Shown here piece by piece: positions 871 to 61,619 of a stretch of 64,000 nt of DNA. The DNA is taken from the NCBI GenBank assembly GCA_964016885.1, contig OZ024761.1, positions 9,300,001 through 9,364,000 of the forward strand. Reading direction: 5' to 3'. A program made the translations under genes and the position numbers. Under the pieces are notes generated by a model, which saw nothing but the letters and a program-made list of their open reading frames with translations, made no database searches and was not told the origin of the DNA. The DNA comes from Eledone cirrhosa (Eukaryota). The number at the start of each line of letters is the position of its first letter. Positions within the stretch are counted from its first letter, which is position 1.

Positions 871-1070
871 TAGGAACCAGTAAGACCCCGACAGCTGAGC
901 TCAAGCCGTTTCGACGGCTAATTCTGGACTGAGTCCAGAATTAGCCGTCGAAACGGCTTGAGCTCAGCTGTCGGGGTCTTACTGGTTCCTATTACCCACT
1001 CTACTACCTCAAGTATTGAGTACTTTGGTGCGTTATGGTCCACCTGGTTCCTTACCACATTTCCTTCGTT
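871..1070 (+). mobile_element. Family A fold-back element in (TA)n, copy 1
   Basis: Perfect 60-bp inverted arms 871-930 / 932-991 around a single G, then an 80-bp tail (ttacccactctactac...tattgagtact...ttccttcgtt). (TA)n on both sides. Confidence 0.85.
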
Positions 1071-1625
1071 ATATATATATATATATATATATATGTATAT
1101 ATATATATGTATGTATATATATATATATATATATATATATATATTTACATATATATATGTATATATATATATATATATATATATATATATTTACATAAAT
1201 ATATATATATTTACATAAATATATATATATATTTACATAAATATATATATATATATATATATATATATATATATATATATATATATATATATATATATAT
1301 ATATATATATATATATATATGTAGATAAATACATGCCAATTCTAACACATATATATCCCAGAAACGATCGTTAAATAATGAACTTTGTTTGTTTAATATA
1401 AGGAACTGTTTCATTGTTTTATTCATTATTTTTTTAATATTTTATATATATATATATATATATTTATATATATATATATATATATTTATATATATATGTA
1501 TTTACATATATATATATATATATATATATATATATACACATATATATATTTACATATATATATATATATATTTACATATATATATATATATATATATATA
1601 TATATATATATATATATATATATAT

Positions 1626-1818
1626 AACAAAGGAATTGTGGTAAGGAACCAGGTGGACCATATCGCACCAGAGTACTCAATACTTAGGGTAGTAGAGTGG
1701 GATAGGAAAAAGTATGACCCAGACGGCAGAGCTCAAGCCGTTTCGACGGCTATTTCTGGACTCAGAAATAGCCGTCGAAACGGCTTGAGCTCTGCCGTCG
1801 GGGTCATACCTTTTCCTA
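1626..1818 (-). mobile_element. Family A fold-back element, copy 2
   Basis: Same tail and palindromic arms in reverse orientation, flanked by (TA)n. Confidence 0.85.
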
Positions 1819-2003
1819 TATATATACACACACATATATATATATATATATATATATATATATATATATGGAGAATAGGATTTTTAAAGACAATATATCT
1901 ACCCCCAGACGTATGTGGTTGAAGGCTGAGAGAACGGAGTACTCAATACCGAAGTATAATTTTAATGTTCATTTTATTAAGGATAAACAGTGAGACTTCT
2001 ACA

Positions 2004-2042
2004 CCTGGAATTTCGCCTGTTTATTACAGGCTCATCAGCAAA
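2004..2042 (-). ncRNA. Hammerhead ribozyme-like core within a TA-flanked element (1868-2122)
   Basis: Minus: TTTG CTGATGA GCCTGT-AATAA-ACAGGC GAA ATT C CAGG. Stem II is perfect; stems I and III are weak. Confidence 0.5.
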
Positions 2043-2146
2043 GAACATTTGTCTATTGACCCTGTGATAAACAGGTGAAACTCCAGTATAAAAAGACCCA
2101 CTATTCAGCCATAATAAAATGAATATATATATATATATATATATAT

Positions 2147-2339
2147 AACAAAGAAAGTGTGGTAAGGAACAAGGTGGACCATAACGCACCAGAGTACTCG
2201 ATACTTAAGGTAGTAGAGTGGGTAATAAAAAAAAGAGTCAGGACCCCAACGGCTGAGCTACGGCCGTTTCGACAGCTAGATCCGAACTAGCTGTCGAAAC
2301 GGCCGGAGCTCAGCCGTCGGATTCCTGACTCTTTTCCTA
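2147..2339 (-). mobile_element. Family A fold-back element, copy 3 (second subfamily)
   Basis: Tail plus arms gagtcaggacccc...ggccgtttcgacagctag / ctagctgtcgaaacggcc...cctgactc, flanked by (TA)n. Confidence 0.85.
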
Positions 2340-59029: not shown

Positions 59030-59895
59030 CCCACAGATATATATTCACACACACAAATTCACAGATATATATTCAGACACATAGACTGACAGATACATAT
59101 TCACACACACAGATTAACAGATATATATTCACACACACAAATTCACAGATATATATTCACACACACAGATTCACAGATATATATTCACACACAGATTCAC
59201 AGATATATATTCACACACATATTCACAGATATATATTCACACACACAGATTCACAGATATATATTCACACACACAGATTCACAGATATATATTCACACAC
59301 AGAGACAGACAGATATATATTCACACACAGATTCACAGATATATATTCACACACAGAGACAGACAGATATATATTCACACACAGATTCACAGATATATAT
59401 TCACACACACAGATTCACAGATATATATTCACACACACAGATTCACAGATATATATTCACACACACAGATTCACAGATATATATTCACACACACAGATTC
59501 ACAGATATATATTCACACACAGATTCACAGATATATATTCACACACAGATTCACAGATATATATTCACACACAGATTCACAGATATATATTCACACACAG
59601 AGACAGACAGATATATATTCACACACAGATTAACAGATATATATTCACACACACAGATTCACAGATATATATTCACACACAGATTCACAGATATATATTC
59701 ACACACACAGATTCACAGATATATATTCACACACAGATTCACAGATATATATTCACACACAGATTCACAGATATATATTCACACACAGAGACAGACAGAT
59801 ATATATTCACACACAGATTCACAGATATATATTCACACACAGAGACAGACAGATATATATTCACACACACAGATTCACAGATATATATTCACACA
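59030..59895. repeat. 26-28-bp minisatellite
   Basis: cagatatatattcacacacagattca. Confidence 0.9.
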
Positions 59896-60242
59896 CCACA
59901 TACAAACACACACACTCACACACACACACATATGCTCAGGTGCAGTGAACAGCGACACTATTATTGACAAATGAGCTATTTAAAAATTAGTACAGTTTTG
60001 AACAGCATACTTGTTCGTTCCCAATCAAATATATCAATGTTCTATAAATGGAAAAAATAAACAGACGAGAAGACTTCAGCGAATACACAAGATGGCAGCA
60101 GATATATAATTGAAGCAGACGACACCCTGATAGAATGCCTGTCCCATCCCGCAATAGGAAATAAAAATGTAACAAACAGACGATAGAGATTTATAGAGTT
60201 GATATACAGAAATAGACGAACTAGTCTGTCATGATTGAGACT

Positions 60243-60530
60243 GGTGGAGACGCGCCGCTTAGTGGTAAGTGTGTTGGACGTACGATCATAATGCTGTGGG
60301 TTCGATTCCTAGACTGGGTTGCGTGTTGTGTTCTTGAGCAAAACACTTCATTTTACGTTGCACCAGTATACTCAGCTAAAAATGAGTATCAGCATTAGCT
60401 GGGGGTGGGTTGAGCTTGCGATAGACTGGCGTCCTGTGCAGTAGGAAGAGAGTCTTGTACTTTCAGTCGCTTCATGCCACAGAAATGGGGATAAACGCCA
60501 GCCATTGGAGCCTTCAGTATCGAGACAGAA
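60243..60530 (+). mobile_element. tRNA-derived SINE family 3 (monomer of the 104-bp array)
   Basis: cttagtggtaag...GGTTCGATTCC...gttcttgagcaaaacactt...tactcagct.aaaatgagta. Confidence 0.8.
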
Positions 60531-60696
60531 TTTAGATGATTGAACCAACGTAAAATGATCAGGTTTGAAAGGTCTGTAGCTTCGGTAAAATTTCGAAATA
60601 AAGAGAGAATTTCTCTTGGTGGCAGAAACTAAAATTGGACGAAAGAGCTGACCCGGGATAGTAGCCCGATTTATACGGTTATTTTATAGTAAGGAA

Positions 60697-60908
60697 CGAT
60701 CGACTTTTCGTCAAATCGGACCGAGGGAACAATGTTTCCGTTGGTCTTTCCAATTGCTAATACTATCTATCGGTCGCAACTCCAGGTAGAAGGAGCAACG
60801 TGAAATAAAGTGTCTTGCTCAAGGACATAACGCATCGCCTGGTCCAGGAATCGAACTCACACCCTTACGATTGCGAATCCAATTCTCTAACCACTCAGCC
60901 ACACGCCT
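60697..60908 (-). mobile_element. tRNA-derived SINE family 2
   Basis: Near-identical to 5596-5808; A box TGGCTGAGTGG, B box GAGTTCGATTCC. Confidence 0.85.
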
Positions 60909-61157
60909 TCACTTTATAGTAAATATATTTGAAATATTTTTTTTTTGTAAATGTATCAGTTATATTACCATATTGTTAATATACTATGACAGCCACAACG
61001 TCGAGTGTTCACGCCTGATTGCATGAAGTTGGTCGATTGGTTCGATCAACAAACACTGATTACCAGTAACGGGGGTCGATAAAATAAAGTACCAGTAATA
61101 CACTGGGATAATTGCTGGCCATGTGCCAAAAGTAGAAACAATTATATATATATATAT

Positions 61158-61619
61158 AATAGCCGTCGAAACGGCTTGAGCTCTGCCGTTGGGGTCATAC
61201 CTTTTCCTATATATATATATATATATATATATATATATATATATATGTGTGTATGTGTGTGTGTGTGTGTGTATACACACACACACATATATATATGTAT
61301 ATATATACAAACATATAAATATATATATATATATGTATATATATATACAAACATATAAATATATATATATATATCTATCTATATATTTATATATAAATAT
61401 ATATATACATATATATTTATATATAATTATATATATATTTATAACGAAGGAATTGTGGTAAGGAACCAGATGGTCCATAACGCACCAGAGTACTCAATAC
61501 TTAGGGTAGTAGAGTGGGTCATAGGAAAAAGTATGACCCCGACGGCAGAGCTCAAGCCGTTTCGACGGCTATTTCTGGACTAAATTAGAATTTTTAGCCC
61601 GGGGTCATCCTTTTTCCTA
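61158..61619 (-). mobile_element. Family A: single arm (61158-61209) and near-complete copy (61443-61619)
   Basis: Same arm and tail sequences, separated by TA/TG microsatellite. Confidence 0.8.

Follow-up and report, generated by a model that had tools for sequence, protein, structure and literature searches.

Hairpin insertions at TA repeats of Eledone cirrhosa as probable two-primed stubs of a Penelope-like retrotransposon

How does a short element without coding capacity come to lie in (TA)n repeats as a hairpin whose centre differs from one insertion to the next? The question is raised by family A, described in an initial annotation as an element of about 140 nt with ten copies in a 64,000-nt stretch of Eledone cirrhosa DNA (assembly GCA_964016885.1, contig OZ024761.1, positions 9,300,001 to 9,364,000), here called the window. 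Our analysis indicates that these hairpins are almost certainly stubs of a Penelope-like element (PLE). We further propose, with a probability of about 0.7, that a stub forms when the two ends of a cut TA target prime complementary DNAs (cDNAs) at two fixed sites of the element's RNA, the two cDNAs then being joined head to head. Positions along the element are counted from the last T of the motif TTCCTAT (site 1, position 0), which places site 2 at +80 and the AGT start at −60.

The ten copies proved real: BLAST with the 139-nt core (window 932-1070) matched ten loci within the window, and a 30-mer from the tail had 36,652 exact matches genome-wide against none for its reversed control, which excludes chance (the genome is 3.0 Gb and TA-rich, and genome-wide DNA counts throughout are by exact patterns). 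Eight loci have an arm and the 80-nt tail, that is, the stretch delimited by sites 1 and 2. A core with an extra arm had been annotated in every copy, and this fails at the two loci without a tail, one with two short arms (near 20400) and the other a solo arm (61158-61210). Copy 1 illustrates the layout. Its tail-less arm (870..930, minus strand) corresponds to the parent sequence from AGT (−60) to site 1, where it joins (TA)n; after a single G at 931, the tail-bearing arm (932..1072, plus strand) runs from AGT to site 2, and the two arms are 100% identical over 61 nt. The plus-strand arm includes site 1, the inner fixed 3′ end defined by the ends of partner arms (986..992), a bulged hairpin that starts 5 nt past it and is predicted to fold as 4 bp, a 2-nt bulge and 4 bp (998..1021), and site 2 (CGTTAT), the outer fixed 3′ end, at which the tail meets (TA)n (1066..1072).

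Five of the first 30 tail loci continue past AGT, without a hairpin, into the 3′ untranslated region (UTR) of a longer parent element, and three of these five reach pieces coding for reverse transcriptase (RT) or a GIY-YIG endonuclease. In a tandem array among the fetched loci (L081/L082), units repeat with a period of 3,542-3,543 bp at 99.6-100% identity, and window 932-1072 occurs there verbatim five times as the end of the 3,542-bp autonomous unit. An autonomous element with RT and GIY-YIG that shares the tail, the partner expected from a Penelope-like origin, was thus found, and the stubs, being verbatim parent sequence, are not an independent non-coding family. The annotated lack of an open reading frame (ORF) and of a ribozyme core is true of the stubs and untrue of the parent, where a long ORF and a complete hammerhead core are present. 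Parent ORF pieces were not found within the window by tblastn; across the genome, 17,969 candidates came from a protein search with 97 aa of RT, and of the 150 that were scored, many sit in 784-aa open frames. Long copies were seen for A-, B-, C- and F-type subfamilies. The 5′ end of the L081/L082 array holds 15 tandem copies of a 55-nt ORF piece before the first partial unit, which suggests repeated slippage of the RT.

The parent has a single ORF (frames of 784-786 aa) with a YRDD motif, in which the RT is followed by a C-terminal GIY-YIG domain, and 347 database relatives at E <= 1e-20. Fold prediction with a 93-sequence alignment reached a predicted local distance difference test score (pLDDT) of 93, against 32 in a single-sequence run, and telomerase RT topped both fold searches (3du5, E 2.9e-8; 6zdp, Z 16.3, root-mean-square deviation 4.3, 288 aligned), the 6zdp match being tied with an RT of a diversity-generating retroelement and with yeast TERT. 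The endonuclease carries VIY..AYIG, with Y, G, E and N conserved across 93 relatives. Pfam gave no match on the parent protein, and its GIY-YIG model scored E 0.069 on one parent copy, below the cutoff; a PDB sequence search with the parent protein was blank or weak. The RT motifs of the Hydra clade are present (DKT at 116; RWR at 36, with K or R in 85/93 relatives), as is the CxCX5C linker (CNCPDRSIC at 571), and CCHH is absent; in the endonuclease region a single Cys stands between VIY and YIG, followed by CNLC..E, LLN and CKH (CxxC-E, N-CxH). The (TA)n target is also that of the Hydra clade, and partial tandems with a pseudo-long terminal repeat (pLTR), an inverted 5′ copy and a tail on one side are Penelope traits. 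By its sequence motifs the parent is a member of the Hydra clade; Neptune and Nematis were dropped as assignments, their CX2-5CxxC linker and CCHH motif not being found. We consider it almost certain that family A is the 5′-truncated pLTR-plus-tail end of this autonomous Hydra-clade retrotransposon.

How the stubs are built was read from a junction census of the window, L001-L050 and L101-L190 (L051-L100 were left out as protein-selected), which held 159 tail motifs, 153 of them parsed, and is skewed to young subfamilies, the loci having mostly been picked by exact patterns. A head-to-head partner ending at site 1 accompanies 100 of the 153 tail arms. The extra arm had been said to stop at TAGGAA, and so it does, to the base in 95 of the 100 partner arms, and 94 of the 100 continue into (AT)n; at site 2, (TA)n follows 150/153 tail ends. 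The other 53 tail arms comprise six rows (three insertions) with a partner at site 2, eight with a partner ending elsewhere and 39 with none or an unclear one, and the combination of site 1 with site 2 thus holds in 100/106 parsed rows with a fixed-end partner. Genome-wide, the subfamily of copy 1 has 7,065 exact site-1/TA junctions. Public contigs, possibly from the source sample and from runs whose kind is not recorded, have loose TA ends at site 1 as well as at site 2, and near AGT their depth changes in a sharp step, depth being no measure of copy number. Each site adjoins a predicted bulged hairpin, 5 nt before it at site 1 and 3 nt before it at site 2, the twin hairpin at site 2 occurring in the parent only, and both sites end in TAT, like the target. 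The turn-around junctions do vary, with 92 distinct end combinations among 100 pairs; there is no fixed internal structure, and a miniature inverted-repeat transposable element (MITE) or other fixed-hairpin master was rejected. Overlaps and fillers at the junctions lie mostly between −4 and +4 nt, a size that microhomology end-joining would give. These data support reverse transcription at a TA target with a new junction at each insertion, as had been supposed from the window. The supposed limit of 60 nt for the extra arm does not hold, since elsewhere in the genome this arm reaches 607 and 1,466 nt, and even kilobases.

The mechanism first proposed for the second arm was fold-back, in which a cDNA with the tail would serve as its own template as far as TAGGAA and then reconnect with the target; later deletions in the middle of the palindrome would account for unequal arms. 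A fold-back copy reaches no further 5′ than its template, yet the tail-less arm was the longer by more than 15 nt in 20/100 pairs and the shorter by as much in 3. Internal deletions of the tail arm explain four of the 20 (L010, L019, L157, L158), leaving 16 versus 3. At L171, L124 and L027 the tail arm begins at +34, +6 and +1 and the partner at −57 to −60, so that these tail arms lack the whole region that the partner copied. The same asymmetry recurs in long copies: in 6/18 full-length loci a multi-kilobase arm ends at site 1 and the tail-bearing partner is shorter (0.18-2.4 kb), as at L095 with a tail arm of 183 nt against a tail-less arm of 5.46 kb; the reverse was found in four, five have no inverted arm (three of them ending at site 1), and three are cut at the edge of the fetched sequence. 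Solo site-1 arms, which have no tail arm to fold back, were seen in 5/30 rare-subfamily loci, at L098 and L099 and at window 61158, and site 1 is exact in 95/100 pairs, sharper than chance TA microhomology would suggest. The longer tail-less arms and the solo arms therefore make site 1 look like a priming site in its own right, which is the best reading of these data, and fold-back fails as a general mechanism. It is in keeping with the near-symmetry of 56/100 pairs, whose arms agree within 5 nt, with the agreement of arms by subfamily and with a C..G spacer that self-copying of a cap-derived C could leave, and self-priming has been proposed for rotifer Penelopes, though from an antisense template (PMC3846280; statements about cited papers refer throughout to parts of those papers). 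On balance we think fold-back quite improbable.

A related question is whether the two primed cDNAs come from one RNA. A 9-nt diagnostic block was identical between arms in 46/69 pairs, two of which were mis-parsed, against 9.9 expected at random, and in the rare subfamily arm blocks agreed in 22/23 pairs and disagreed in one. An arm's own partner was strictly its nearest arm in only 7/69 pairs, however, and the variants once taken as private to each copy, and expected to make arms cluster by locus, mark subfamilies as shared blocks; kinship was scored by this nearest-neighbour count instead of a tree, arms of 45 nt being too alike. A single RNA would explain the rule of one site-1 and one site-2 end and, supposing that the outer RT has to push the inner cDNA aside, the shorter length of tail arms as well. 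Priming of the two ends on different RNAs, with one RNA for each protomer of a dimer, would account for independent arm lengths, for the three insertions with two tails and for one discordant pair, and the Poseidon protein is predicted to be a dimer (PMC11167929). Alone, though, it gives no reason for the site-1 and site-2 rule, and the concordance in the rare subfamily speaks against it unless one source locus dominates per cell; we judge it unlikely.

Which RNA serves as the template? The 5′ ends of 64/153 tail arms and 53/100 partner arms lie at −54 to −62, and those of 16 tail arms and 6 partner arms beyond −70; stops at −393 to −481 were rejected as 5′ ends, since the alignments break off there in low-complexity UTR. 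Of the six AGT starts annotated in the window, five stand (932+, 1762-, 2288-, 33018+ and 52883-), whereas the arm assigned to 61581- extends 21 nt more 5′ and matches the parent to 61602. All five long copies carry a TATA-like hexamer (TATTTA or TATTCA) at −89 to −91 and, 29-31 nt from it, TTAGTC or TCAGTC spanning AGT, which bears out an initiator-like start; the consensus sequences of both motifs are general knowledge. At (TA)n, the base before AGT was T in 48, G in 16, C in 9 and A in 4 of 77 unique loci (best 100 of 1,284 matches), and before a control AG at −49 it was T in 73, G in 1, C in 1 and A in 2 of 77 loci (best 100 of 424 matches). G is therefore enriched at AGT (16/77 versus 1/77, Fisher p = 1.3e-4), and none of the five long copies has G at −61. 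The G at 931 (plus strand) is non-templated, since the parent of the same subfamily has T at this position, and is likely a copied cap, as had been suspected. Between two facing AGT starts, the best 50 of 695 loci had no spacer in 9, a single C or G in 18, a single A or T in 2, C..G in 12, G..C in none and another spacer in 9; L305 has G-AGT at both starts. A cap test on the arm-arm junctions of fetched loci was confounded by the last base of the partner arm. The spacer and G data support a copied cap, short of proof. Among the best 100 of 148 pLTR-ORF junctions, 30 are short; eight of these loci extend to +142..+306 and then restart at −63 to −49, and three restart at GGGGTC, as may be expected of end-to-end template jumps on short RNAs. 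The short RNA template envisaged earlier is plausible from these mini-tandems, though as a product of the parent.

The AGT start falls inside a predicted ribozyme. Window 942..977 (plus strand) is, by a manual motif parse of five long copies, the 3′ half of a type I hammerhead, with the 3′ strand of stem II, GAAA, stem III with the palindromic loop TGAGCTCA, GTC^GGGG and the 3′ strand of stem I in this order, and the predicted cut falls between window 972 and 973. The 5′ half (ACCCC-TTGA.AA-stem II) lies upstream of AGT and is found in the parent only. Parsed by hand, the parent has the U3-A8 variant core, GAAA, three stems and an NUH site; the core reads TTGA.AA in 3/5 long copies and has C or G at position 3 in the other two. 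No family reached the gathering level in Rfam scans, which did not detect the split hammerhead. There are 4-5 bp in helix III, and the stem II region of 54-56 nt includes a loop II of ~37 nt that holds the putative promoter, so that an AGT transcript would carry half a ribozyme at its 5′ end. The predicted cut lies at −19, and a peak of 5′ ends stands there in both subfamilies. Among arms starting at −15 to −26 at (TA)n, 24/56 unique loci of the first subfamily (best 100 of 102 matches) start at −19, with 5 at −20 and 3 ambiguous (binomial p ~4e-12 against a flat 12 positions, a crude null); in the second, 19/61 start at −19, 8 at −20/−21, and 5 are ambiguous. If it does reflect the ribozyme, the −19 peak is genomic evidence for Penelope hammerhead cleavage in vivo. 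Template jumps onto the cut 3′ end of the ribozyme had only two matches genome-wide, giving no support. A non-long-terminal-repeat retrozyme was rejected for the stubs, which are non-tandem and have half a ribozyme. The exception is L262 (G000:C2:356028571-356033390), where seven 299-bp units are assembled from pieces of the parent and contain the two halves of the core and a shorter loop II; this array looks like a newborn retrozyme derived from the parent element.

These 5′ ends might instead be accidents of copying, AGT marking an RT stall or RNA breakage, the G a terminal addition or repair filler and −19 a pause at the G run beside stem III. The scatter of 5′ ends over −54 to −67 fits such an account, as do the lack of full-length copies starting at AGT, the 8/61 loci at −20/−21 in the second subfamily and an anole element in which no reads end at the ribozyme cut (PMC11167929). 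It sits poorly with a G enrichment specific to AGT and with TATA-like and initiator-like motifs 29-31 nt apart in all five long copies, and if RT stalled at stem III, −20 should be the preferred end, yet −19 leads by 24 to 5; it therefore seems doubtful to us. A still more remote idea is that the stubs descend from an independent, non-autonomous master with a built-in hairpin, resembling a short interspersed element (SINE), a retrozyme or a MITE. In the youngest subfamily there are indeed about 48 stubs for each pLTR-ORF junction (7,065 exact site-1/TA ends versus 148), and small tandem arrays of 226-299 bp exist (L262, L272), but the junctions are not fixed, long copies are known for four subfamily types, and the stubs are verbatim parent sequence without the TATA-like box, with half the ribozyme and without the second hairpin. 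This explanation is largely refuted, and we think it very improbable.

Several observations weigh against the two-primed-end reading. Fold-back may explain the near-symmetric pairs equally well, and palindromes can lose their centre after insertion, which mimics some of the asymmetry. Only 17/153 tail arms and 14/100 partner arms start exactly at −60, and some arms extend 1-7 nt past AGT, so that starts are heterogeneous or a second template exists. The excess of G over A among non-templated purines (16:4 versus 1:2) is not significant alone (p = 0.16). Of the best 100 of the 148 pLTR-ORF junctions, 70 reach at least 600 nt of ORF, and none of these starts at −54 to −62. RNA data, as assembled contigs only, yielded a single contig of 90-95% in one run, in the 3′ UTR. 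Tails occur on both arms in three insertions, blocks are discordant in one pair (L127 = L193), and one RNA is not distinguishable from two RNAs of one source locus. Lastly, the start sites of the anole element have no homology to the target (PMC11167929), and here, where both sites end in TAT, homology may play a part.

In the proposed mechanism of two primed ends, the endonuclease would cut both strands inside (TA)n, and one target end would prime at UUCCUAU (site 1) and the opposite one at CGUUAU (site 2), both of which closely precede a predicted bulged hairpin. Both cDNAs would probably be copied from one RNA and joined head to head. The commonest template would be a capped RNA from AGT, made from the promoter inside the hammerhead stem II loop; as reverse transcription could start on it only at the two sites 60 and 140 nt away from the cap, both cDNAs would run off as stubs, sometimes with the cap copied as G, and host end-joining with 0-4 nt of microhomology or a short filler would close the centre. 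A minority of templates may begin at the hammerhead cut (−19). Full-length and tandem copies would come from another class of RNA, read-through or circular, because 0/70 long junctions start at AGT. L1 twin priming likewise yields an inversion when the other target strand starts a second cDNA on the RNA already being copied; L1 inversions, however, hold non-overlapping parts of the RNA, copied from variable points, whereas the two arms here cover one region and start from two fixed sites. More tentatively, the stubs may record a whole Penelope cycle. The loop promoter would yield capped RNAs with half a ribozyme and a single pair of start sites near the cap, and two RT molecules, one at each end of the break, would copy one such RNA into a dead hairpin, tens of thousands of which have accumulated. 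Full-length tandems would arise only from RNAs that contain the whole ribozyme, are cleaved at GUC^G and are probably either circular or products of read-through.

The Hydra clade is described as having a C-terminal endonuclease, RWK-type and DKT (instead of DKG) motifs, CxCX5C, no CCHH and (TA)n targets, and PLEs in general show tandem or inverted insertions with the tail on one side (Craig et al. 2021, PMC8557442). The parent resembles the clade in its single ORF running from RT to GIY-YIG, in RW(K/R), DKT, CxCX5C and the CxxC/CxH residues around E and N, in its target and in the hammerhead within its repeat; it differs in a unit of 3.54 kb where the clade is generally <3 kb, in a tail of 80 nt where 30-40 bp is usual, and in its U3-A8 core and 54-56-nt stem II region where Hydra-1_Obim (2,507 bp) has a canonical core (PMC8557442). 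The motif GTCGAAACGGC was not found in the part of the PMC8557442 supplement text that was searched. Inverted ends, tails and TA targeting are thus published traits, and the element adds a member to a known clade. For Poseidon of Anolis carolinensis (PAc; Frangieh et al. 2024, PMC11167929), both target strands are cut and extended in vitro at AT-rich targets, two internal RT start sites delimit the tail, and a hammerhead lies in the pLTR. The two-site, two-strand priming proposed here matches this behaviour, although PAc belongs to another clade, and neither inverted arms nor a cap or start site is taken up in that paper. Penelopes of Adineta vaga likewise have head-to-head inverted pLTRs with an optional tail on one arm and a putative TATA box and initiator in the pLTR; these few copies were explained by self-priming on an antisense template rather than by a pair of sense-primed cDNAs (Arkhipova et al. 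2013, PMC3846280). The hammerhead of Schistosoma Cercyon has the same U3-A8 core, and PLE hammerheads share a long helix II with bulged bases, a palindromic loop III, motif pairs on opposite strands and many truncated solo copies (Cervera and de la Pena 2014, PMC4209133). The short helix III and the promoter-bearing loop II of the present element are unlike the hammerheads in that report, which offers no in vivo evidence of PLE hammerhead cleavage.

Our literature search found no account of two sense-primed arms or of cap or cut-site starts; Repbase, Dfam and subscription papers lay outside its scope and may hold the family or the model. Neither family nor model is described in the parts seen of PMC13282606 (octopus repeats), PMC12602865 (killifish) and bioRxiv 10.64898/2026.07.22.740005. 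As far as this search shows, the link to an intact parent, the cap-like G at a promoter in a ribozyme loop and the pile-up at the cut site are new. The origin of inverted ends and one-sided tails, the transcription start and the role of the hammerhead are named as open questions in the literature (PMC8557442, PMC11167929, PMC4209133), and the mirrored ends for which Penelope elements have long been known would be accounted for by two-end priming. The family is young, with many intact frames and thousands of junctions, and so offers predictions at the level of single bases for assays in vitro or in cells: both target ends should prime, reverse transcription should start at 0 and +80, the RNA should be capped at AGT and the ribozyme should cut at −19. 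The family is also a warning for repeat annotation, as such stubs can pass for MITEs, SINEs or microRNA hairpins.

The other nine window copies vary on the same plan. In copy 2 (1624..1819, minus strand) the tail arm runs from 1762 to 1624 and the tail-less arm occupies 1763-1819 on the plus strand. Copy 3 (2145..2340, minus) is of an older subfamily with the start AGTTCGGATC at 2288- and a tail-less arm ending at 2340 on the plus strand. Copy 4 (20373..20453, plus; left boundary approximate) has its two short arms, no tail and TA on one side only. The tail-less arm of copy 5 (32970..33153, plus) lies on the minus strand, and its tail arm, from AGT at 33018, has a shortened tail; copy 6 (33667..33834, plus) has internal deletions of hairpin segments in both arms, and in copy 7 (35118..35299, plus) the tail arm begins at −52 and the tail-less arm at −47. 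Copy 8 (52741..52900, minus; right boundary approximate) has a tail arm from AGT at 52883- and a partner arm of ~17 nt. Copy 9 (61158..61210, plus) is the solo tail-less arm to site 1, flanked by (TA)n on both sides, and copy 10 (61441..61620, minus) has a tail arm that passes AGT to ~−81 (61602) and a tail-less arm of ~20 nt.

Another element with two arms occupies window 1869-2125 (minus strand) and is flanked by (TA)n runs; it has a canonical hammerhead core (CTGATGA..GAAA), a weak Rfam Hammerhead_3 match at 2005-2056 and a tail motif, GTATTGAGTACTC, that resembles that of family A; relatives at 75-87% occur in L206, L157, L121 and others. Perfect palindromes of 270-490 bp lie near or inside family A insertions at L031:964-1858, L032:5734-6225 and L034:4962-5227, and some of them may be other two-armed elements or secondary fold-backs. 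At L032:8430-9513 an RTE-like RT frame directly follows a family A tail and TA run. Window 390-695 (plus) is decayed coding sequence that we take to resemble the C-terminus of a Tc1/mariner transposase (WP..SPDL.P.D-type motif). Minisatellites occupy window 29153-31897 (81 bp x 34 at 97%), 27694-28367 (159 bp x 4), 9400-11770 (a composite of ~121-143 bp) and 39863-40355 (47 bp x 10), and a SINE-like repeat of 190-240 bp, presumably typical of octopus genomes, stands in tandem at 21407-21774, 32149-32525 and 38964-39734.

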